Position numbers and translations under genes: made by a program. Of a DNA stretch of 38,217 nt, positions 1-37,377 are shown one piece after another. The stretch lies in NCBI GenBank assembly GCA_035655715.1, contig DASRTX010000170.1, positions 1 to 38,217 on the forward strand, given 5' to 3'. The notes beneath the pieces were generated by a model, which made no database searches, was not told the origin of the DNA, and was given only the letters and a program-made list of their open reading frames with translations. Source of the stretch: Myxococcales bacterium. GTDB lineage: Bacteria > Myxococcota > Myxococcia > Myxococcales > 40CM-4-68-19. Numbering within the stretch: the stretch's first letter is position 1; the number at the start of each line of letters is the position of its first letter.

Positions 1-1189
1 CCTTTCCAGCGCCGCCATCCACGCCGTCTACCGGCCGGTGATCGTCCGGCCTCCGCCGCAGCTCCCGCCCGACGCCACCGCGGTGTTCCTCATCAACCAC
101 CGCAGCAACTTCGACTACGTGGTGGTGGGCTGGGCGCTGGCACGGCAGGTGGCCATCAGCTACGCGGTGGGCGAGTGGGCCCGGGTCTTTCCCCTCGACG
201 CGCTCTTCAAGGCGTTCGGCGGCTTCTTCGTGCGCCGCGGATTCCGCGATCCGCTCTACCACACGGTGCTGCGCCGCTACCTCCAGCTCATCACCCGCCG
301 CGGCGTCACCCAGGGCATCTTCCCCGAGGGCGGGCTGACGCGCGACGGCGCCCTGCTGCCGCCCAAGGTGGGGCTGCTCGATGCCCTGCTCCAGCTCGCC
401 GAAGGCTGCGAGCTGTACTTCGTGCCCGTCGGCATCAACTACGACCGCGTGCTCGAGGACGAGGCCCTGCTCGCGGAGCTCCGCGGCCGCCAACGCCCGC
501 CGACGCGCGCGGAGAAGATCCGCGGAGCGTTGCGGCTGTTCTGGCTGATTCCCTGGCGCGCTGCGGTGAACGCCGTGCGCGTCGCCACCGGCCGCCTGCA
601 GCGCAACGGCTACGTCGCGGTCGCCTTCGGCGAGCCGGTGCGCTTCGCCGATCTTCCCCAGGCCCGCGGCATCGCCGCGCTCGGCGACGAGCAGCGGCGC
701 GCCCGCGCCAAGGAGGTGGCCGCGCTGCTGATGGAGCGGATTGCGCGGGTGGTCCCCGCCACGCCGGTTTCGTTGGTGGCGCGCGCGGCGCTGGATCTTT
801 CCTGCCAGGCCAGCGAGAGCGATCTGGCGCGCCGCGTCCGCGAGCTGCGGATTTCCCTCGAGCAGCGCGGCGTTCCCACCGCCATGGGCCGCGAGTTCGA
901 CGAGCAGCGCGCGGCCAGGGAGGGCCTGCGCGAGGACCTTGCCCGCACGCGCGAGCTGCTGCGGCTGGAGGACGATCTCCTGGCCGGCGAGGAGGCGGAG
1001 GAGATCGTGCGGCTCGGGCTGCAGCGGCTGGTGCAGCGAGGCGCGCTGGCGGCGCGCGAGGGCCGGGTAGGCCCGGGACGGCACCCGCACGCCGGCGAGC
1101 TGCTCGCCTATTATGCGCGCTCGCTCGACCAACCGGCTGCAAGGCCGGACGACCTCCCGCGGCAGGCGCAGGGTTTGATGCGTTCCTAG
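1..1189 (+). CDS. PlsB/PlsC-type glycerolipid acyltransferase (5-prime end outside window)
   Basis: The frame of ORF 38..1189 stays open back to position 2. It carries the HX4D motif (NHRSNFDY) and the FFVRRG, FPEGGLTRDG and VPVGINYDR blocks in PlsB-like order. Confidence 0.75.
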   Translation, partial: LSSAAIHAVYRPVIVRPPPQLPPDATAVFLINHRSNFDYVVVGWALARQVAISYAVGEWARVFPLDALFKAFGGFFVRRGFRDPLYHTVLRRYLQLITRRGVTQGIFPEGGLTRDGALLPPKVGLLDALLQLAEGCELYFVPVGINYDRVLEDEALLAELRGRQRPPTRAEKIRGALRLFWLIPWRAAVNAVRVATGRLQRNGYVAVAFGEPVRFADLPQARGIAALGDEQRRARAKEVAALLMERIARVVPATPVSLVARAALDLSCQASESDLARRVRELRISLEQRGVPTAMGREFDEQRAAREGLREDLARTRELLRLEDDLLAGEEAEEIVRLGLQRLVQRGALAAREGRVGPGRHPHAGELLAYYARSLDQPAARPDDLPRQAQGLMRS

Positions 1190-1199
1190 ATTTGAACGG

Positions 1200-3203
1200 A
1201 TGAGCGACCCGGGCCTCGCCAGCGAACCCAGGCGACTCGCCGACTTCTTGCGCGAGCGGCGCGAGGAGATCCTGGACCACTGGGAGCGCCAGGTGCGCTC
1301 CGTGGGTGCGGCCCGCAACCTCGAGCGGCCCGTCTTGCTCGACCACCTGCCCCAGTTCATCGACGACCTGGCGGAATACGTGGGTGAGGTCCGGACCGGA
1401 GTGGAGCTACCGCCGCCCGAAGAGCTCTCCCGCATCCACGCCCTGGAGCGGTTGGAGGTGGGCTACGACCTCGCCGAAGTGGTCGCCGAGTACGGCATCC
1501 TGCGCCGCTGCATCACCGAGCTGGCGGCGCACGAGCACGCGCCCTCCCTCCGCTCGGCAGAATTGCCCCGCCTCCACCAGGCCATCGACCATGCGATCGC
1601 CATCTCGGTGGTCCGCTACACGGCGGCGCGCGAGCGGACGCTGCGCGCGCTGGACCGCATCTCCAGCGCGGCGCTGGTGCATCACGACGTCGAGTCGCTC
1701 CTCCCCCGCACGCTCGACGCCTTTCTCGGGACCACCGCCTCGGTCGACTCGGTGGCCCTCGCCCTGCGCGAGGACGGCGACGGGTTGCGCATCCGCGCGG
1801 CCGTGGGATTTCCCCCGTCCGCGGACGGACAAGCGCGCCTGTCCGCGCAGGGCTTCATCGCCCGGGTCGAGCAGCGCGGAGAGCCGGTGTTCGTGCGCGA
1901 CGCGGAGATCGATCCGGAGCTGCGCGCCGAGGCGGAGTTCCCTCCGGGCACGCAGGCCCTCTACGGCGTACCGCTGACCATGGGGAAGGACCTGCTCGGC
2001 GTGGCGGTGATGGGCTCGCGCTCGACCCGCGAGTTCTCGCAGGAGGACCAGTTCCTCTTCCGCACCATGGTCAACCGCCTCGCCGCCCTGATCGCGCAGG
2101 CGCGGCTCGACGCCCAGGTGGCGCACCGCGCGGCGGAGCTGGAGGCGGTGATCGAGAGCATCCCCGAGGCCGTCTACGTCGGCGACGCGACCGGCATCAA
2201 GCGCGCCAACCGCGCCGCGCTGGAGATGCTGGGCTACGGCGCGCCGGGCGAGCTGAACAAGGACATCTCCAGGCTTTCGGGTGAGATCCAGGTCCGGTCC
2301 CTGGACGGCGCCGCGGTGCCCATCGAGGAGCAGGTCTTCGCCATGGCGCTGCGCGGCGAGCACGCGGTGCGCGAAGTGATCGTGCGCCATCGCGGCAGCG
2401 GCGAGGATCTGGTGGTGCGATCGAGCGCGGCTCCCATCCGGCTTGGGGACCGGATCGTCGGCGTGGTGGCGGTGAACACCGACATCACCGCGCGCATGCG
2501 GGAGGAGCGCGATCTGCGGACGGCGCTGGCCTTCCGCGACCGGATGCTGGGCGTGTTGAGCCATGACCTGCGCAACCCGCTGAGCGTCATCCTCACCTCG
2601 GCCGAGACGCTGCAGCGGCAGGAGCACGACGACCGGCACCGCGCGACGCTGCGACGGGTCATCGACAACGCCCGCCGGATCGAGCGCATGATCCATGACC
2701 TGCTCGACTACACCCGCACGCGCGAGGGCCGGGGCCTGCCCATCTCCCGCACCGAGGCCGACCTCGTCGCGCTCTGTCAACAAGTGCTCGACGGCATGCA
2801 GGTGCTCCACCCGGACCGGGCGTTGCGATTGAGCACCAGCGGCGACACCAAAGGCTCCTTTGACCCTGACCGCGCCACGCAGGCCATCGGAAATCTGCTC
2901 AGCAACGCGATCCGCTACAGCCCGGACGGTTCTCCGGTCACCGTGACGCTGTCGGGCCGCGATACGGAGATCGTGCTGGAGGTCCACAATCAGGGGACGC
3001 CCATCGCGGAGGACCTGCTCCCGCGCCTCTTCGACGCCTTCCAGCGCGGCGTGCCGGACGAGCGAGGCTGGCGCGCGGGCCTCGGCCTCGGCCTCTACAT
3101 CGTGCAGCAGATCGTCGAGGCGCACGGGGGCAGCATCGAGGTGCGCTCGACGGCAAAGGACGGCACCACCTTCGCCGTCCGCTGGCCCCGCCGCGCGGCG
3201 TGA
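1200..3203 (+). CDS. Sensor histidine kinase (N-terminal RsbRD-like helix bundle, GAF, PAS, HisKA, HATPase_c)
   Basis: 667-aa ORF. H-box SHDLRNPL, N-box LLSNAIRYS, G-boxes GLGLGLYIV. The central region is GAF-like (AVMGSRSTREFSQEDQFLF) and PAS-like. The ATG lies 10 nt after the upstream stop. Confidence 0.9.
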   Translation: MSDPGLASEPRRLADFLRERREEILDHWERQVRSVGAARNLERPVLLDHLPQFIDDLAEYVGEVRTGVELPPPEELSRIHALERLEVGYDLAEVVAEYGILRRCITELAAHEHAPSLRSAELPRLHQAIDHAIAISVVRYTAARERTLRALDRISSAALVHHDVESLLPRTLDAFLGTTASVDSVALALREDGDGLRIRAAVGFPPSADGQARLSAQGFIARVEQRGEPVFVRDAEIDPELRAEAEFPPGTQALYGVPLTMGKDLLGVAVMGSRSTREFSQEDQFLFRTMVNRLAALIAQARLDAQVAHRAAELEAVIESIPEAVYVGDATGIKRANRAALEMLGYGAPGELNKDISRLSGEIQVRSLDGAAVPIEEQVFAMALRGEHAVREVIVRHRGSGEDLVVRSSAAPIRLGDRIVGVVAVNTDITARMREERDLRTALAFRDRMLGVLSHDLRNPLSVILTSAETLQRQEHDDRHRATLRRVIDNARRIERMIHDLLDYTRTREGRGLPISRTEADLVALCQQVLDGMQVLHPDRALRLSTSGDTKGSFDPDRATQAIGNLLSNAIRYSPDGSPVTVTLSGRDTEIVLEVHNQGTPIAEDLLPRLFDAFQRGVPDERGWRAGLGLGLYIVQQIVEAHGGSIEVRSTAKDGTTFAVRWPRRAA

Positions 3204-3215
3204 TATCTCCCGCCC

Positions 3216-4031
3216 ATGAGCATCGCATTGGTCACCGGGGCGTCGGCCGGCATCGGCCTGTCCATCGTGCAGAAGCTTGCCGCGCAGGGCCATCGCCTCG
3301 CGCTGGTCGCGCGCACGGAGCAGACGCTGCGGGCGGCGGCGGCTTCGCTGCCGGCGGGGGCAGCCGAGATCTTCGTCTGCGACGTGAAGAATCTCGCCGC
3401 CTGCGCCGCCCTGCCGGGCCGGGTGGCGGCCCGCATGGGCGGGCTCGACGTGCTGGTCAACAATGCCGGCTTCCACCGCCGCGGTCCCTTGCTGGAGGTG
3501 GACCCGCTCGATCTGGGCGAGATGGTGGGCGTCAACCTCGCCGCTCCGATGGTGCTGACGCGGGCCGCGGCGCCGCTGATGCCGCGGGGCGGCCGCATCG
3601 TCAACGTGGCCTCGCTGGCCGGAATGGTGCCGATGCGGTTCCAGGTCGCCTATGGCGCCACCAAGGCAGGCCTGCGCGCCTTTTCCCGCGCCGCCCGGGA
3701 CGAGCTGGAGCCGCTCGGCATCGCCGTCTCGGTGGTCTCTCCCGGCCCGGTGGACACCGGCTTCTTCGGCGAGGAGCTCGAGCGCGTGGCCGACATCGTC
3801 TTCTCGCAGCCGATGAGCACCGCCGATCAGGTGGCGGATGCGGTGCTGGAGTGCATCCGGACCGGCGCGGCCGAGATCGCGGTGCCCTGGTTTTCGGGAA
3901 AGCTCTGCACGCTGGGATACCTCTCGCCGCGGCTCTCCCGCCTGCTCCGCCCGGCGCTGGAGAAGCGCGGCGCGCGGAACAAGGCGGCGTACATCCGGCG
4001 GAAACGTGCACCCGGGGCGCCTGCGACCTAA
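3216..4031 (+). CDS. SDR-family short-chain dehydrogenase/reductase
   Basis: TGASAGIG Rossmann motif, NNAG, and the catalytic YGATKAG (YxxxK). Confidence 0.9.
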   Translation: MSIALVTGASAGIGLSIVQKLAAQGHRLALVARTEQTLRAAAASLPAGAAEIFVCDVKNLAACAALPGRVAARMGGLDVLVNNAGFHRRGPLLEVDPLDLGEMVGVNLAAPMVLTRAAAPLMPRGGRIVNVASLAGMVPMRFQVAYGATKAGLRAFSRAARDELEPLGIAVSVVSPGPVDTGFFGEELERVADIVFSQPMSTADQVADAVLECIRTGAAEIAVPWFSGKLCTLGYLSPRLSRLLRPALEKRGARNKAAYIRRKRAPGAPAT

Positions 4032-4045
4032 ATTCAACCGTACGC

Positions 4046-4621
4046 GTGTACGCTGCCTTGGCGATCTTCGGAGCGGTCCTCTCCACGCTCGTGCTCCCCC
4101 TCCCGGAAGAGCTGGCCCTGATGGGCGCCGGCTGGTGGGCGCACGAGGGCGCGCTGCCGCTCTGGGCGGCCTGGGTCGCCGCCACCGCCGCCAACGTGAC
4201 CGGCGACACCATCTCGTACCTGGTGGGTCGATACTTCCTGGAGAAGCTGCTGCACACGCGACTCGGCAAGCGCGTCGTCTCGCCGGAGATGCGCAACTGG
4301 GGCGAGGACTTCGTCAAGCGTCACGGTTTCTGGGCCATCGTGCTGGGCCGCTTCCTGGTGGCGGTGCGCGGGCCGGTGTACTTCGCCATCGGCGCCTCCA
4401 AGTACCCGCTGGGCCGGTTCGAGGTCATCAACACCGCCGTCGCGCTGATCGAAGGCGCGGTGCTGGTCTGGCTCGGCTACCAGTTCGGCGAATCGGTCAA
4501 GGTCTCGCACGAGGCGCGCTGGATCGAGATCTCCATCGGAGTCGCCGTGCTGTTGTTCATCATTCCGGCGCTGCTGAAAGCCTGGCTTACCCGCCGCCAC
4601 CGCCCTCCCGCCAACGCCTGA
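4046..4621 (+). CDS. DedA/SNARE-associated family membrane protein
   Basis: This is the C-terminal part of the 473-aa ORF 3200..4621. Only this part is protein-like (GDTISYLVGRYF, FWAIVLGRFLVAVRGPVYFAIG). The GTG at 4046 is my chosen start and is uncertain. Confidence 0.7.
   Translation: MYAALAIFGAVLSTLVLPLPEELALMGAGWWAHEGALPLWAAWVAATAANVTGDTISYLVGRYFLEKLLHTRLGKRVVSPEMRNWGEDFVKRHGFWAIVLGRFLVAVRGPVYFAIGASKYPLGRFEVINTAVALIEGAVLVWLGYQFGESVKVSHEARWIEISIGVAVLLFIIPALLKAWLTRRHRPPANA

Positions 4622-4669: not shown

Positions 4670-4675
<6 letters not shown>
4649..4675 (+). promoter_or_regulatory. Hairpin CTGCATCC-(11 nt, T6)-GGATGCAG that pairs the glgX start codon
   Basis: 8-bp perfect stem. The right arm contains the ATG at 4670..4672. 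No SD is visible upstream. Confidence 0.35.
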
Positions 4676-6790
<2,115 letters not shown>

Positions 6791-6795
6791 TGGAT

Positions 6796-6868
6796 CTACG
6801 GGGACACGCTATTGCGTTTGCCCGTATCTGGGGACACGCAATAGCGTGTCCCCGTAATTCCGTAATCC
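6796..6868. repeat. Nested palindromic repeat element, GGGGACAC family, copy 1
   Basis: CTAC-GGGGACACGCTATTGCGT (6800..6817) is the reverse complement of ACGCAATAGCGTGTCCCC (6836..6853). GGGGACACGC-AATA-GCGTGTCCCC (6830..6853) is itself a hairpin. It is followed by GTAATTCCGTAATCC. The element lies between the convergent glgX and PilZ gene ends. Confidence 0.85.
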
Positions 6869-6872
6869 GCAG

Positions 6873-7523
6873 TTACCCAAGGAGGACTATGTTCGGTCTG
6901 CTGATCCCGCAGTGGCACCGCGACGGGTGCTCCGCCGCCCGGGCCTCGCGCCACTCGTCCCGGGCGTGATCGATCATCCTGCGCACCGCCGCTGCGGTGG
7001 GCGCATGCTCCTTGTCCCACTCCACTCCCACTTCGCTCTGCTGGACCCACGCGACCCATCCGCGCGCCTCCAGCTGCTCGCCCGATTCGCCGGCCTCCGG
7101 CAGCGCCACGCGCACGCGCTGCCCCGGCCTGCCCGCATCCGCCGGCAAGGCCGCCAGCCGCGCCCCGCCCTCGCTCACGTCGCGCAGGCGGCAGAGCAAC
7201 GCGGCGAGACCTGAGGCTTCCAACAGCACCAGCTGCTCGCTGCCCATCCTTAGCTCGGCGCGCAGCGGGAGCCGCTCGATGCGGGTGAGCGCGCGCTCGG
7301 CCCCCGCCAGCTCCAGCCAGATGCCGCCGCTGCCGCGTGCCCATACCCAGCCGCTCAGCAGGGTCACCTGGTCGGTGGCGGAGAAATCGACCCGCAGCGA
7401 GGCGAGCGTGCCCTTCGGCGCCACCGCCTCGGGGAAGAAGAAATACCCCGCGCCGTCCACGAAGTGCAGGTGCTCGCGCATCGCGCGCGGGCTCTGGATC
7501 CGATATCGCAGTCGCAACGCCAT
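6873..7523 (-). CDS. Tandem PilZ-domain protein (N-terminal myxobacterial PilZ-like domain plus canonical C-terminal PilZ)
   Basis: Internal ATG at 7523, preceded by GGGGGAGG. The C-terminal domain has RAELR (RxxxR) and DVSEGG (DxSxxG), the c-di-GMP binding motifs. The part of the 324-aa ORF upstream of 7523 is not protein-like. Confidence 0.75.
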   Translation of the reverse strand: MALRLRYRIQSPRAMREHLHFVDGAGYFFFPEAVAPKGTLASLRVDFSATDQVTLLSGWVWARGSGGIWLELAGAERALTRIERLPLRAELRMGSEQLVLLEASGLAALLCRLRDVSEGGARLAALPADAGRPGQRVRVALPEAGESGEQLEARGWVAWVQQSEVGVEWDKEHAPTAAAVRRMIDHARDEWREARAAEHPSRCHCGISRPNIVLLG

Positions 7524-32972: not shown

Positions 32973-34315
32973 CCGGGCATGCCGAGCGCGCCGCCGAGTT
33001 CGTGGAGAACGAGGCGCGCCTGCACTGGCACGACCAGGCGGTGTGGTTCGTCCGCAACAAGCGCGACATCGCCCGCAGCTTCGTGCCCGAGTGGGAGGAG
33101 CTGCGAACGCTCGGTTCGCAGATCAAGGCGCACACGCTCTCGCGGCTTCCCGCCTATCTGGAGCAGTTCGAGCGGAACGCGCGGGCCGCCGGCGCGCAGG
33201 TGCACTGGGCCCGCGACGCCGAAGAGCACAACCGCATCGTCCACGGAATCCTCGAGCGGCGCTCTGTCACCCGCCTGGTCAAGAGCAAGTCCATGCTCAC
33301 CGAGGAGTGCCACCTCAACGAATACCTCGAAAAGAACGGCGTCGAGGTGGTGGACACCGACCTGGGCGAGCGGATCGTGCAGTTCCGCCGCGAGCCGCCC
33401 TCGCACATCGTCATGCCCGCCATCCATTTGAAGAAGGAGGAGATCGGCGAGCTGTTCCACGAAAAGCTCGGCACGCCGGCCGGCCTGGCCGACCCCAAGG
33501 CGCTCACCGAGGCGGCGCGCCAGCACCTGCGCGAGAAGTTCCTCGGCGCGCAGGCGGGGCTCACCGGGGTCAACTTCGCCATCGCCTCGACCGGCGGCGT
33601 GGTGGTCTGCACCAACGAGGGCAACGCCGACCTGGGCACCTCGCTGCCGCCCATCCACATCGCCTGCATGGGAGTGGAGAAGCTGGTGCCCTCGCCCCGC
33701 GAGCTGGCGGTCTTCCTCCGGCTGCTGGCGCGCAGCGCCACCGGCCAGCCCATCACCACCTATACCTCGCACTTCCATGGGCCGCGGTCGGGCGCGGAAA
33801 TGCACGTCGTCATCGTCGATCACGGCCGCAGCCGCATCCTGGCGCGCGAGGAATACAGGAACAGCCTCAAGTGCATCCGCTGCGCGGCGTGCATGAACAC
33901 CTGCCCGGTGTACCGGCGCAGCGGGGGCCACAGCTACGGCGTGACGGTCCCTGGCCCCATCGGGTCGATCCTCGCCCCGCACATCGATGCGAAGAAGCAC
34001 GCCGGCCTGCCCTTCGCGTCCTCCCTGTGCGGCTCGTGCACCGACGTCTGCCCGGTGCGCATCGACCTGCACCACCAACTGCTGACGTGGAGGGGCGAGC
34101 TGGCCAGCAGGGGGCTCGTGCCGCTGGGCAAGCGCGTGGTCTCGCGGGTCGGCGGCTGGGTGCTGGCGCGGACCTGGGCCTACCGCCTCTTCGGGAAGCT
34201 GGCCCGCCTCTTCGCGCCGCTCTTGCCCAATCCCTGGACGCGGCAGCGCGAGCTGCCGCCCATGCCGCGCGAGAGCTTCCGCGCGCAATGGAGGAAACGT
34301 GGACGCGCGCGATGA
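32969..34315 (+). CDS. lutB: Lactate utilization protein B (LUD domain plus 2x[4Fe-4S])
   Basis: ATGA overlap with lutA. CIRCAACMNTCP and CGSCTDVCP motifs. LUD-domain block GVNFAIASTGGVVVCTNEGN. Confidence 0.9.
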   Translation: MTGHAERAAEFVENEARLHWHDQAVWFVRNKRDIARSFVPEWEELRTLGSQIKAHTLSRLPAYLEQFERNARAAGAQVHWARDAEEHNRIVHGILERRSVTRLVKSKSMLTEECHLNEYLEKNGVEVVDTDLGERIVQFRREPPSHIVMPAIHLKKEEIGELFHEKLGTPAGLADPKALTEAARQHLREKFLGAQAGLTGVNFAIASTGGVVVCTNEGNADLGTSLPPIHIACMGVEKLVPSPRELAVFLRLLARSATGQPITTYTSHFHGPRSGAEMHVVIVDHGRSRILAREEYRNSLKCIRCAACMNTCPVYRRSGGHSYGVTVPGPIGSILAPHIDAKKHAGLPFASSLCGSCTDVCPVRIDLHHQLLTWRGELASRGLVPLGKRVVSRVGGWVLARTWAYRLFGKLARLFAPLLPNPWTRQRELPPMPRESFRAQWRKRGRAR

Positions 34316-34892
34316 GATCCTGCGCGCGCTCCGCGCCGCCGCAGTCCCGGAGCTACCGCTGCCCGATCTCTCGCGGCTGGAGGCGGTGCGCTATCCCGAC
34401 GTGCGCGAGCGGTTCGCGAAGAGCGTCGTCGAGGTGGGCGGCAGCTGCGTGGCGCTTGCCGCGGGCCAGCCGCTGGAGCAGGCGTTGCTCGCCGTTCCGG
34501 AATATGCCGCGGCGCGGAGGGTGGCCTCGCTGGTGCCGGGCGTCGCCAAGGTGAACGTCGAGGTGGAGTCGGTGCGCGATCCGCACGACCTGCGCGACGT
34601 GGACTATTGCGTTCTGCCCGCCGAGCTGGGGGTCGCGGAGAACGGCGCCTGCTGGATCGTCCACCACGGCGGCGCCAACCGGGCGGTGGCCTTCCTCGCC
34701 CAGCACATCGCCATCGTGGTCCGCGGCGACACGCTGGTGCACAACCTCCATGAAGGCTACGAGCGCGCCGACATCCCCGTCCCCGGCTTCGCCATGTGGC
34801 TCTCCGGGCCCTCGAAGACCGCCGACATCGAGCAATCCCTGGTCATCGGCGCCCACGGCCCCCGCTCCTGCACGGTCTTTCTCGTGGACTAA
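34299..34892 (+). CDS. lutC: Lactate utilization protein C (LUD domain)
   Basis: GTG start preceded by GGAGGAAAC. Overlaps the lutB end by 17 nt. GVAENGACWI and SKTADIEQSLVIGAHGP blocks. Confidence 0.85.
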   Translation: MDARDEILRALRAAAVPELPLPDLSRLEAVRYPDVRERFAKSVVEVGGSCVALAAGQPLEQALLAVPEYAAARRVASLVPGVAKVNVEVESVRDPHDLRDVDYCVLPAELGVAENGACWIVHHGGANRAVAFLAQHIAIVVRGDTLVHNLHEGYERADIPVPGFAMWLSGPSKTADIEQSLVIGAHGPRSCTVFLVD

Positions 34893-34972
34893 TTCGGGGA
34901 CACGATACGTAATTCGTCGTATTGTGTCCCCGAATTGGGATACGACGAATTACGTATCGTGTCCCCGAATTA
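34890..34972. repeat. Nested palindromic repeat element, GGGGACAC family, copy 2
   Basis: 32-nt arms AATTCGGGGACACGATACGTAATTCGTCGTAT (34891..34922) and their exact reverse complement (34940..34971). The 17-nt spacer carries an extra GTGTCCCCGAATT. The outer TAATT/AATTA ends provide the TAA stops of lutC and the permease gene. Confidence 0.9.
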
Positions 34973-36064
34973 TTTCGTGGCGCCGGTGGTCATGCCGCTG
35001 ATGAAGTAGTTCAGCGACAGGCCGTAGACGATGACCACAGGCAGCGAGCCGAGGATGGCGCTGGCCATCAGCGGGCCCCAGAAGTAGACGTCCCCGCGGA
35101 TCATCTCCACCGAGATTCCCACCGGCAGCGTGCGGTTGGCCGTGCTGGAGATGAAGGTCAGCGCGTAGACGTACTCCTGGAAGCTGAGCGTGAAGGCGAA
35201 GATGGCGGCGGTGAGGATGCCCGGGAGCACCACCGGAATCACCACCAGCCGCAGCATCTGCATGCGCGTGGCGCCGTCGAGCAGCGCGCGCTCCTCGATC
35301 TCCTTGGGCACGCCGCGGAAGAAGCCCATCAACAGCCAGGTGCAGAACGGGATGGTGAAGGTGGGGTAGCTGAGAATCAAGGACCAGATGGTGTTGTCGA
35401 TGTGGAGCGCGCCCACCAGCTGCGAGAAGGGAATGAAGAGGATGGTGGGCGGGATCAGGTAGGTGAGGAAGATGGCGATGCCGATGCCGCGGTTTCCGGG
35501 GAAGGTGAGCCGCGCCAGCGCGTAGGCGGCCGGCACCGCGACCAGCAGCGTGATCAGCACCACCGCGAGCCCGGTGAGCAGGCTCACCTGCATCCAGCGG
35601 TAGAACGGCGTGGAGTTGAGGAACTCGTAGTGCGACAGCGTAGGGTTGTCGACGTTGATGTCGCCAATCTCCTGGTTGGGATGTGCGATCTGCCCCTCGG
35701 GCACGTCGATGCGGCTGAGCGTGCCGCTGACGGGGCTGAGGATCTCCTGCTCACCGATCATCGCGATGGGCTTGGGGTTCGCCTCGGCATCGCTGCGCCT
35801 GGTGTGCGAGTTGAGGGGCTGCTGCCAGTGGATGGGCCCCTCCTGGTAGGAGGCCGGGACGATGATGTCCTTGTGGTACGGCTTGCCGGTGCGGCCGTCG
35901 ATGGTGGAGATCAAGAGCGGGTTGCGCGAGAGGTCGTAGAGGTTCGCGTCGGCCTTGAACGAGGTGATGACGCCCCAATAGAAGGGAAAGAGCGCGAAGG
36001 CGAGGAACGGCGCGAGGAACGCCCAGGAGAACAGGTCGTGCCGCAGCCCGCGCAAGAACGTCAC
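34970..36064 (-). CDS. ABC sugar-type transporter permease (MalG/UgpE-like) with a ~95-aa periplasmic insertion after TM1
   Basis: EAA loop region EERALLDGATRMQML. GTG start overlaps the upstream TGA (GTGA). The insertion lies between SFKADANLY and LSHYEFLNSTPFYRW. Confidence 0.85.
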   Translation of the reverse strand: MTFLRGLRHDLFSWAFLAPFLAFALFPFYWGVITSFKADANLYDLSRNPLLISTIDGRTGKPYHKDIIVPASYQEGPIHWQQPLNSHTRRSDAEANPKPIAMIGEQEILSPVSGTLSRIDVPEGQIAHPNQEIGDINVDNPTLSHYEFLNSTPFYRWMQVSLLTGLAVVLITLLVAVPAAYALARLTFPGNRGIGIAIFLTYLIPPTILFIPFSQLVGALHIDNTIWSLILSYPTFTIPFCTWLLMGFFRGVPKEIEERALLDGATRMQMLRLVVIPVVLPGILTAAIFAFTLSFQEYVYALTFISSTANRTLPVGISVEMIRGDVYFWGPLMASAILGSLPVVIVYGLSLNYFISGMTTGATK

Positions 36065-37377
36065 ATGTTCTCCTTGCGCAGCGACTGCAGCATGCCGAAG
36101 ACCGTCACCGCCATGATGGGAAAGAGGAAGAGCGAGATGGCGGCGCCCTTGCCCAGGTAGCCCGCGTTCACGCCCACCTGGTACGCATAGGTCGCGAGCA
36201 TCTGCGTCTGGTCGTAGGGGCCGCCGCGGGTGATGATCCAGATGGTGTTGAAGTCGGTGAAGGAGAACACCACCGAGAAGAGCAGCGAGACCATGAGGAT
36301 GGGCCGCACCATCGGCGCCATGATGTAGAAGAAGCGCTGCAGGGCATTGGTGCCGTCCAGGCGCGCCCGCTCCAGGATCTCGTCGGGGATGGAGGTGAGG
36401 CCGGCGAGGATCACGACCGTGGTGAAGGGAAACCCGCGCCACACGTTCACCACCACCAGCGAGAGCATGGCCAGGGTGGGGTCGCCGCGGAAGTTGAGGA
36501 TGTTGGCGGGCGAGATGATCCCGCTGTGGACCAGGCCCCAGTTGATCACCGAGTAGGTGCTGTCGAGGATCCACAGCCAGGCCTGCCCGGAGATGGCGAT
36601 GGGAATCACCCAGGGGATGACCAGCAGCCCGCGCAGGAACTGGCGGCCGCGGAACTTGCGGTGGAGCAACAGCGCGCAGGGGATGCCGAAGAACAGCTTC
36701 ACCAGCTCGGTGCCGAAGGTGTACTTGAGCGTGTTCTTCACCGCCAGGATGAAGTTGGGATCCTGCTGCACGCCGGTGCCATTGGCCTTGAGCTGCGTCC
36801 CGGCCTTGACCAGGATCGATTCCTTCTCCGCCTTCTTGGCGGTGGCGTGGTCGCTGAAGTTGCCGAACGTGAGCGGCGAGTCGGCCGAGTGGGCCACCAC
36901 CTTGCCGCCCTGGAGCTGCCAGTCCAGGTCGTTGAGGATGGTGGTCGCCACGTAGGTGGCGTCGCCCTCGTTCTCCGACGACACCACCGGGATGGTGCGA
37001 CCCGCCACCTCGAGAGAGGCCTTGAAGCGGGCGCCGTCCGGCGCGGTGGTCACCTTGCCGTCCTTCTTGCCCGCCAAGAACGCCTTCGCTTCCTCGTTCT
37101 TGCCGTCGAAGAGCACGAAGTCGTTGGCGAGCAGGTCGTAGCTCTCCACCTTCGAGTAGTTGGACATCCCGACGTAGTTCCACTTCTGCGCGCCCGCCTG
37201 CGCGTCGGTGAGGCTGAGCCAGATGCTCATCGCGAACGGATAGGCGATGAAGGCGGTGAGATAGAGCAGCGCCGGAATCACCAGCGCGTACCCGAAGGGC
37301 GCCTCGCGCTCCGAGAAGCGCAGCTTGCGCGCCCTCTTCTGGACCTTTGCGTCGGACGGGATGACTAGAGGGCGCAT
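36061..37377 (-). CDS. ABC sugar-type transporter permease (MalF/UgpA-like) with a ~125-aa periplasmic insertion after TM1
   Basis: EAA loop ERARLDGTNALQRFF. The ATG at 37377 overlaps the ATPase gene end by 13 nt. A Lys-rich, lower-GC insert lies between MSNYSKV and DPNFILAVKNT. Confidence 0.85.
   Translation of the reverse strand: MRPLVIPSDAKVQKRARKLRFSEREAPFGYALVIPALLYLTAFIAYPFAMSIWLSLTDAQAGAQKWNYVGMSNYSKVESYDLLANDFVLFDGKNEEAKAFLAGKKDGKVTTAPDGARFKASLEVAGRTIPVVSSENEGDATYVATTILNDLDWQLQGGKVVAHSADSPLTFGNFSDHATAKKAEKESILVKAGTQLKANGTGVQQDPNFILAVKNTLKYTFGTELVKLFFGIPCALLLHRKFRGRQFLRGLLVIPWVIPIAISGQAWLWILDSTYSVINWGLVHSGIISPANILNFRGDPTLAMLSLVVVNVWRGFPFTTVVILAGLTSIPDEILERARLDGTNALQRFFYIMAPMVRPILMVSLLFSVVFSFTDFNTIWIITRGGPYDQTQMLATYAYQVGVNAGYLGKGAAISLFLFPIMAVTVFGMLQSLRKENM

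Follow-up and report, generated by a model that had tools for sequence, protein, structure and literature searches.

Between two convergent genes, lutC and a gene for a sugar-transporter permease, a Myxococcales bacterium carries an 83-bp palindrome that we call E1. The window, the whole stretch of DNA analysed here, comprises positions 1 to 38,217 of contig DASRTX010000170.1 of assembly GCA_035655715.1 and has a G+C content of ~70%. An earlier reading made from the letters alone (the sequence-only reading) had pointed to the palindrome and to the fact that it supplies the stop codons of both genes, and had proposed either an insertion with target duplication or a trimming or extension of the genes onto stops encoded by the element. 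Our analysis points to a different origin: E1 is probably an inverted dimer of a REP-like hairpin repeat of 46 nt, copies of which are dispersed over GC-rich soil contigs and mostly lie at the ends of genes. Loci outside the window are given as L-numbers. The features at the junction are:

34299..34892, + strand: lutC, coding for a LUD-domain protein (PF02589) of 197 aa, with its TAA stop at 34890-34892
34970..36067, - strand: gene for an ABC sugar-transporter permease (BPD_transp_1), with its TAA stop at 34970-34972 on the minus strand; the start coordinate is approximate, taken from alignment with the 365-aa gene of L007
34890..34972, no strand: E1, the palindrome over its full 83 bp, interpreted as an inverted dimer built from a 46-nt hairpin repeat
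34896..34903, + strand: GGGGACAC on the lutC side, at the foot of the hairpin, matching the published motif GGGGWSAS (PMC3733652)
34924..34931, - strand: GGGGACAC (GTGTCCCC on the + strand), the 3' foot of unit A
34959..34966, - strand: GGGGACAC (GTGTCCCC on the + strand), the 3' foot of unit B

The palindrome at the lutC-permease junction

E1 (34890-34972) reads TAATTCGGGGACACGATACGTAATTCGTCGTAT / TGTGTCCCCGAATTGGG / ATACGACGAATTACGTATCGTGTCCCCGAATTA and is the longest inverted repeat of the window. The exact 32-nt arms described earlier are borne out, although a repeat finder measures the perfect arms at 33 nt each (34890-34922 and 34940-34972; 100% complementary), separated by a 17-nt spacer. 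There are exactly three copies of AATTCGGGGACAC, at 34891 (+), 34924 (-) and 34959 (-), and the middle one (34924-34936) corresponds to the third arm-end copy that had been noticed inside the spacer. Folded as RNA, E1 is predicted to reach -64.9 kcal/mol on the + strand and -62.2 kcal/mol on the - strand (z about -10), values that describe thermodynamics only and that none of 200 shuffled controls attained; as DNA it folds at -41 kcal/mol on either strand, with z scores of -13 and -11. At the gathering score, Rfam 15 gave no match in the window and none over the related elements in 18 loci, while an E-value search on E1 returned only sub-threshold matches to generic microRNA hairpins. A full-text literature search for GGGGACAC/GTGTCCCC yielded primer noise only.

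Independent soil and rhizosphere runs contain contigs that join either lutC to the left arm or the right arm to the permease gene. These contigs stop only within the palindrome and not at its edges, because an assembler with k=31 meets arms of 33 nt; the innermost 25 nt (34919-34943) are covered by no independent contig. Metatranscriptome contigs show that lutC and the permease gene are transcribed, and one of them, whose strand is not known, runs from the 3' end of the permease gene into the right arm, to 34943. Between 34600 and 35300 a terminator scan came up empty on both strands, and no T/U run follows the stem, where the tails are TTTCGTGG (+ strand) and GTCCACGA (- strand), so that E1 is at most a putative terminator.

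Both TAA stops do lie within the symmetric element, as had been read from the letters: the arms contain 34890-34892 and 34970-34972, where the two open reading frames (ORFs) end, so that an intergenic repeat indeed sits on two coding ends. The final two bases of the lutC stop are the first two of the repeat unit that we call unit A, and the final two of the permease stop come from the end of unit B; T-AATTC...GAATT-A is how copies of the family usually end, so that the A's of both TAA codons are indeed supplied by the element. What the junction looks like without E1 can be seen in relatives. LutC homologues come from uncultured Myxococcales or 'Deltaproteobacteria' of soil origin, and one of these, L007 (metagenome-assembled genome (MAG) GCA_050256775.1), has a LutC 81% identical to that of the window and the same gene order, lutB-lutC-permease-permease-ATPase-binding protein. 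L007 lacks the element, and just 2 nt separate its lutC and permease genes (...GTG GGC TAG cg CTA CTT CGT...). Nucleotide homology between the window and L007 ends at 34891 and restarts at 34971, while homology to a second relative, L006, ends at 34887 and restarts at 34971.

LutC has 197 aa and the permease the C terminus ...GATK in the window and in L007 alike, and only the stops differ (TAA versus TAG). Since the genes end at the same codons in both, E1 has neither shortened nor lengthened either protein, and the idea of trimmed or extended genes is not supported. The sequence-only reading had named a combination of findings that would speak against its account: element-free loci that end at the same codons with the same TAA stops, no sign of a target-site duplication, and an element confined to this locus. 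We found the same end codons and no duplication, but the stops are TAG rather than TAA and the element is dispersed rather than unique.

At the lutC 3' junction, L006 holds instead ~1 kb of DNA with a 145-aa ORF, and in L004 a restriction-modification gene of the MmeI family (988-3918) directly follows lutC and replaces the sugar transporter; since these relatives hold other DNA there, the junction is a variable spot. Just downstream of lutC, L006 (6600-6760) and L004 (700-860) also share a different repeat of ~150 nt, with G+C-rich inverted ends of ~30 nt (GCCGGGGCGAGGCGGGGTGGG...CCCACCCCGCCTCGCCCCGGC) and an A/T-richer core, which from its sequence looks like another miniature inverted-repeat element at the same junction.

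A dispersed 46-nt hairpin repeat at gene ends

The repeat unit comprises 46 nt: AATTC GGGGACAC (G/C)(A/T)TACG, a loop of 8 nt, and CGTAT(C/G) GTGTCCCC GAATT. A metagenome scan with the pattern AATTC-GGGGACAC-N16-26-GTGTCCCC-GAATT returned 29 loci, mostly on contigs of 0.68-0.73 G+C that come from two assemblies of one organism. Counting copies with variant ends, they amount to ~20 distinct insertion sites, with unrelated flanks and loops and both orientations, and the surmise of a repeat family is thus confirmed for GC-rich soil contigs. The copies also show in sequencing runs. When the contigs of four soil or rhizosphere runs were aligned to 34500-35400, the Logan word depth of three runs was 5-7 on the flanks but 80-620 over 34872-34964, a 10-80-fold increase, and peaked at ~29 over E1 in the fourth, a run of low coverage. 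Many soil-run contigs match only from 34889/34891 to 34933/34936 and then diverge into mutually unrelated sequence. An apparent joint from 34913 to 34950 in soil contigs was considered as an empty or shorter allele and rejected: it has 21-22 nt per side, all of it repeat sequence, and judged by that sequence it is another family member whose locus is unplaced. Inside the permease gene, soil-run contig depth also spikes 20-40-fold at 35306-35367; the probable cause is a conserved stretch of ABC-permease sequence that many soil bacteria share at >=90%, and not a repeat.

An alignment of 20 copies has 29 invariant columns, and GGGGACAC is invariant in every copy (20/20). Across the stem, 95.6% of the cells are paired and 14 of the 19 pairs never vary; 6 of 19 distinct copies have mismatches at pairs 14/33 and 15/32. 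The loops are free to vary and are seen in both orientations, TAATTCGT and ACGAATTA. Some copies end in GTTTC...GAAAC or AAGTC...GAAAC, and because such variant ends are inverted, the five outer bases belong to the stem and are not a duplicated target. The flanks of ~22 copies contain no direct repeat, which matches the expectation for single-strand Y1 transposition and does not support the target-site duplication of the MITE type (a miniature transposable element with inverted repeats) that had been suggested; E1 itself is blind to this test because TA and AATT are self-complementary. No unpaired GTAG or GTGG stands next to the stem in the 20 copies, whose ends are (T/A)AATTC and paired. A blastn search of the consensus unit against plasmids gave no match.

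E1 and a second, related element of the window, E2, can be resolved as follows:

34891..34936, no strand: unit A, a complete 46-nt unit, AATTC-GGGGACAC-GATACG-TAATTCGT-CGTATT-GTGTCCCC-GAATT
34937..34939, no strand: GGG, judged from the sequence probably what is left of unit B's eroded inner GGGGACAC
34940..34971, no strand: unit B, a 32-nt 3' part in flop orientation whose first 14 nt (AATTCGGGGACACG) are missing
6798..6856, no strand: E2, a second related dimer, -33 kcal/mol as DNA

Unit A aligns column for column with the 19 other copies; it has one mismatch to the copies in L188 and L189 and 97.9% identity to those in L188, L189 and L178, and alone it folds as DNA at -20.3 kcal/mol. Unit B is identical to the final 32 nt of the L178 and L195 copies, AATTCGGGGACACGATACGACGAATTACGTATCGTGTCCCCGAATT, with the loop in the opposite orientation. 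The simplest reading of E1 would therefore be a flip/flop inverted dimer that shares AATT and in which only GGG is left of the second unit's inner foot (CGGGGACACG). The outer palindrome is perfect because the outer halves of two consensus units are automatically complementary, and the spacer holds a 'third copy' because the 3' foot of the first unit survives there.

All six GGGGACAC of the window fall in E1 and E2, where 1.4 would be expected. E2 reads TA-C-GGGGACAC-GC-TATT-GC-GTTTGCCC-G / TATCT / GGGGACAC-GC-AATA-GC-GTGTCCCC-G-TA; GTTTGCCC is a degenerate foot, and the plan is like that of E1 with a different and shorter stem. It starts 8 nt past the TAG stop of the ORF at 4670-6790, and its 3' hairpin was found again in a few other contigs of soil run X1. 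E2 and E1 share only CGGGGACACG/CGTGTCCCCG, and E2 lies ~35 nt upstream of an AAGGAGG-ATG start at 6890.

Copies of the family hug stop codons. Among 25 copies, 23 lie <=12 nt from the stop of an ORF rich in third-position G+C, compared with 6.9% of random placements in the same loci, and 10 lie between convergent genes with both stops <=12 nt away or inside the copy. In 35 of 44 ends AATTC has an A or T as its outer neighbour, and a TAA stop spans the junction (T-AA) in 17 of 44. The neighbouring gene in L174 runs into the unit and stops on a TAA of the loop, and an ORF of L184 reads through a whole unit. Because most copies hug gene stops in this manner, the 'shared stops' of E1 are a habit of the family and not a peculiarity of the locus. 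The same is already known of REPs, whose termini often supply the stop codon of flanking ORFs (TAG from GTAG) and which lie mainly downstream of genes, between genes of the same direction as well as convergent ones, with some inside ORFs (Di Nocera 2013, PMC3733652).

Motif-footed hairpins in other phyla and their link to Y1 transposases

The motif at the hairpin foot leads beyond Myxococcota. A scan of one genome per species with GGGGACAC-N8-38-GGGGACAC-N2-32-GTGTCCCC gave at least 118 loci, where chance would give an estimated 4 under uniform composition and perhaps 20 when G+C-rich genomes are allowed for. They are spread over at least a dozen phyla or groups thereof, among them Alpha-, Beta-, Gamma- and 'Delta'-proteobacteria, Actinomycetota (Amycolatopsis, Streptomyces), Clostridia, Planctomycetota, Acidobacteriota, Poribacteria, Omnitrophota, Elusimicrobia and Bacteroidota. 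Among the matches listed, the stem extends at least 3 bp beyond the motif in 75 of 118, and the first and second motif share the same next 4 nt in 56 of 118. An ORF of at least 150 codons ends <=20 nt away from 42% of the clusters listed and from 9% of random positions, a contrast that is overstated because the control includes coding positions. TAATTC-GGGGACAC itself recurs in Poribacteria, in Riflebacteria (as TAATTCG-GGGGACAC) and in one uncultured MAG, while GGGGACAC-(A/G)ATACTTAATTC is found in several Proteobacteria, with a near variant, GGGGACAC-CTTACTTAATTC, in one Riflebacteria copy. When the ORFs within 3 kb of the 118 listed elements were clustered, no neighbouring protein family recurred, so that the elements have no linked gene in general.

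In some lineages, however, such hairpins do bracket a gene. L094 (Sphingomonadales) holds a gene for a 192-aa Y1 transposase with nested GGGGACAG-TTACGTAA-CTGTCCCC hairpins on both sides. The protein matches Pfam Y1_Tnp (E 3.9e-10) and NCBIfam REP_Tyr_transpos (E 6e-21; its 74.9 bits just miss the model cutoff of 80), is annotated in its source as a REP-associated tyrosine transposase, and was the sole match in tblastn searches with approximate sequences of E. coli RayT and IS200 TnpA. Its homologues in Allosphingosinicella (L201, L203) are bracketed by AAAA-GGGGACAG-TCACAGTGA-CTGTCCCC-TTTT, and these hairpins are also scattered nearby, even between rpsL and rpsG. Plasmid homologues (L207-L209) likewise give inverted motif-bearing ends around Y1 genes: in Pseudomonas, Rhodospirillum and Iodobacter the inverted ends have the form f-GGGG(A/T)CAG-x, the left end in Pseudomonas also being tandemly duplicated, while the Skermanella homologue has tandem upstream copies only. 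A profile built from the published TIRYT alignment found further matches in L183, L175, L113 and L079, and in L079 and L113 (a Pirellula MAG and a Clostridia MAG) degenerate TIRYT-like ORFs adjoin clusters of GGGGACAC.

TIRYT genes, which code for RAYT-like HUH/Y1 tyrosine transposases, and the TIRtron units that they form part of were named by Di Nocera, De Gregorio & Rocco 2013 (BMC Genomics 14:522; PMC3733652), who found GGGGWSAS to be common to the inverted repeats that flank some TIRYT genes and described TIR families as dispersed and moderately abundant, occurring as singles, dimers and clusters. Most TIRYTs fall into TnpA_REP subclass 2.1, with the motif GGGG[AT][CG]A[CG] and a C-terminal helix-turn-helix (HTH) domain (Quentin 2018, BMC Genomics 19:475; PMC6006769); the same study found no REP-like sequences near subclass 2.1 genes.

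Contigs that carry units of the E1 type also carry RayT-like Y1 genes, at L183:2007-2954 and L175:854-1525 (Pfam Y1_Tnp E 4e-6 and 5e-7), relatives of which bear the JGI name 'REP element-mobilizing transposase RayT'. Together with L211, L214 and L216 they represent a Myxococcales-wide family with an arginine-rich N-terminal extension (GGRRxGAGRKPKG), at least two paralogues of which occur on contigs with E1-type units; the family may be domesticated or orphan.

Partial copies of the unit occur as well. Direct half-copies of its first 9-10 nt (AATTCGGGG) often stand immediately 5' of a full unit, as at L171 124-134, L177 9282-9293 and L183 6964-6974, and also upstream of the transposase gene in L206 and L207; the left ends of TIRYT genes are tandemly duplicated likewise. 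We considered these upstream half-copies as an attenuator-type switch and rejected the idea, as the copy is identical and not complementary to the 5' arm, and the same grammar at TIRtron left ends also rules it out. L184 holds a tandem array at 6812-6938 with a period of 47 nt (GGATTGAACGCACCATCGGAGCCGAA(C/G)GCAGATGGTGTCCCCA(G/C)C), consisting of 3' halves of the hairpin unit repeated head to tail, with one GGGGACAC...GTGTCCCC hairpin at its start. In other phyla (for example in L098 and L085), the piece duplicated in such half-copies can take in the stop codon of the upstream gene itself.

Viral contigs were scanned as well, with CGGGGACAC-N0-30-GTGTCCCCG, and gave 45 matches, about the chance number and mostly unrelated small hairpins. 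Five phage-like IMG/VR contigs of 52-62% G+C (L020, L021, L026, L039, L052) contain 3-6 short GGGGACA-N2-3-TGTCCCC palindromes each, many situated between ORFs and several directly preceding ribosome-binding sites; from their sequence and placement they look like a regulatory or terminator motif of phages.

Origin and spread of E1

What kind of element does this make E1? One comparison is with GTAG-tagged REPs and REPINs, which are reportedly mobilised by RAYTs (Nunvar 2010; Bertels and Rainey 2011; Ton-Hoang 2012). Like them, the E1 family consists of imperfect palindromes of 20-46 nt that are dispersed and extragenic, lie mostly downstream of genes and between convergent genes with occasional copies inside ORFs, fold as one long hairpin when present as inverted dimers (-20.3 kcal/mol for the unit and -41 kcal/mol for the dimer, as DNA), have no target duplication and possess ends able to supply the stop of a flanking ORF. 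Unlike them, it lacks an unpaired GTAG or GTGG tag, its conserved motif lies inside the stem foot, and the stop it supplies is TAA, from T-AATTC. Rickettsia palindromic elements (RPE) are longer, unrelated in sequence and restricted to Rickettsia; they resemble the E1 family in that some of its members lie in coding sequence without breaking the frame (the unit in L184 and a doublet in mutL of L059), whereas E1 itself is not inside a gene. The Correia elements of Neisseria exceed 100 bp and have a TA target duplication and inverted ends of the DDE type. Such MITEs are also small intergenic inverted-repeat elements beside genes, capable of forming hairpins in transcripts, but the E1 family shows no duplication and its ends are stem bases.

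Another comparison is with TIR families and TIRtrons. The foot GGGGACAC fits GGGG[AT][CG]A[CG] in each inverted arm, the copies are short, partly self-complementary, dispersed at moderate copy number over many phyla as singles, dimers and clusters, and Y1 genes with motif-bearing inverted ends do exist (L094, L201, L203, L207-L209), if in lineages other than that of E1. The differences are that no flanked transposase gene was found for the Myxococcales family, that the units of E1 are full hairpins with a 19-bp stem, each the counterpart of fused left and right ends, and that AATTC/TAA ends and the tight association with stop codons are unreported for TIR families.

On this evidence we favour, as the likelier account, that E1 is an inverted dimer of a REP-like, non-autonomous hairpin repeat of the GGGGWSAS kind associated with TIRYTs. 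The unit, with its 19-bp stem, AATTC-GGGGACAC foot and variable 8-nt loop, would correspond to the two ends of a TIRtron, left joined to right, without the gene between them. Acting in trans, a Y1 transposase may recognise the folded single strand at the replication fork, and would cut and rejoin it without duplicating the target. The bias towards stop codons could arise because A/T-rich targets in a genome of 70% GC are mostly stops, or because selection purges copies elsewhere. As T-AATTC ends carry TAA both ways, a copy within a tight convergent pair can stand in for the two native stops and leave the proteins unchanged. For the host, the consequence would be that both mRNAs end in a highly stable 3' hairpin and that the DNA has a site prone to form a cruciform, without a canonical intrinsic terminator.

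Several points weigh against this reading. We infer mobility from the distribution of copies and from one diverged empty site (81% LutC identity), not from recent polymorphism, and the effect of E1 on host RNA is likewise something that we infer. Deleting 34891-34971 would strip lutC of its stop, and our attempt to rebuild the exact pre-insertion sequence was abandoned as impossible from a relative of 81% identity. Because the stem is so conserved, with 14/19 pairs invariant, covariation cannot prove that it folds. The dimer reading requires the loss of 7 nt in the inner foot, and a templated inverted duplication of the left arm would yield an identical sequence. Finally, no Y1 gene flanked by AATTC-GGGGACAC-GATACG units was found in the ~0.35 Mb of the lineage examined, so that the cognate enzyme is only a presumed one; the RayT-like gene of the L183 type was rejected for now as a candidate, since motif hairpins or inverted repeats are found around none of the Y1 genes in L183, L175, L211, L214 and L216.

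The alternatives fare less well. That the copies matter as double-strand sites, an array bound by a protein recognising GGGGACAC such as the HTH domain of a TIRYT or a nucleoid protein, we consider quite unlikely. E. coli REPs do bind gyrase and IHF, only the 8-10-nt motif is common across phyla while the adjoining stem differs, motifs often come as 2-4 direct copies plus inverted ones, and some phage contigs have many short GGGGACA-N2-3-TGTCCCC palindromes between genes; TIRYTs moreover possess a C-terminal HTH domain (PMC6006769). Within a genome, however, the whole stem is conserved and paired (95.6%) while loops vary and flip, as fits recognition of a hairpin, the binding protein is only hypothetical, and the proposal addresses what recognises the repeat, not how its copies spread. 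A classical MITE moved by a DDE transposase, with TA, TAA or AATT as the duplicated target, is very unlikely. It could draw on the self-complementary TA/AATT ends of E1, which would allow a duplicated AATT or TA there, on the TA...TA that brackets E2 and on the A or T that flanks 80% of unit ends, but the variant ends (GTTTC...GAAAC, AAGTC...GAAAC) are inverted and not direct, ~22 copies show no direct repeat outside the unit, a 46-nt unit with a 19-bp stem has the size of a REP, and the foot motif is that of Y1 transposase gene ends (PMC3733652; L094, L201, L203 and the plasmid genes).

Highly improbable, too, is a functional hairpin that evolved in place without being mobile, as a bidirectional terminator or a stabiliser of mRNA 3' ends. 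The same 46 nt recur at ~20 other sites with unrelated flanks, close relatives have 2 nt between the genes in place of E1, and neither strand has a T-run or a hit in the terminator scan; in its favour stand the very low folding energy on both strands, the position exactly between two convergent stops and the metatranscriptome contig that runs from the permease gene into the right arm. A secondary, exapted role in stabilisation is compatible with the selfish repeat that we favour. An assembly artefact, a chimeric fold-back join, is scarcely credible: amplification and assembly errors can produce perfect palindromes, but both junctions are reproduced in independent runs, the gene order agrees with L006 and L007 on both sides, and contigs break inside the element and not at its edges.

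Read as a REP-like repeat, E1 is an ordinary selfish element and not a new device; it is a new family member in Myxococcota and reveals no new kind of system, and that REP ends supply stops to flanking genes was known (PMC3733652). What goes beyond the descriptions in PMC3733652 and PMC6006769 is the pattern of motif-footed hairpins in many phyla that hug and donate stops. GGGGWSAS, first noted only at some TIRYT gene ends, now defines full families of hairpins, both in Myxococcota and, as the scan shows, across at least a dozen phyla, and the tendency of copies of this type to hug stop codons and to donate them has been put in numbers. A bolder extension, which we think rather unlikely, would make the GGGGACAC-footed hairpins a third pan-bacterial REP-like superfamily beside GTAG and CGTC, whose Y1 enzyme actively targets stops, or the A/T step at gene ends, and which brings its own TAA on both strands in a 'safe-harbour' insertion; if true, the position at gene ends reflects the choice of target and not merely survival after random insertion. 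The presumed Y1 enzyme gains a testable substrate, a 46-nt hairpin with an invariant foot. For annotation, both TAA stops and gene ends are correct as they stand, repeat masking should cover the 83 bp, and short-read assemblies will break at the perfect-palindrome dimers of the family, whose arms exceed the assembler's word length.

Two hairpin doublets in an Alphaproteobacteria MAG (L059) bear on copies inside genes. One, at 3614-3678, is a GGGGACAC-loop-GTGTCCCC doublet inside mutL that leaves the frame intact and adds ~22 residues to the ATPase domain; the other, at 4134-4201, overlaps the mutL start region.

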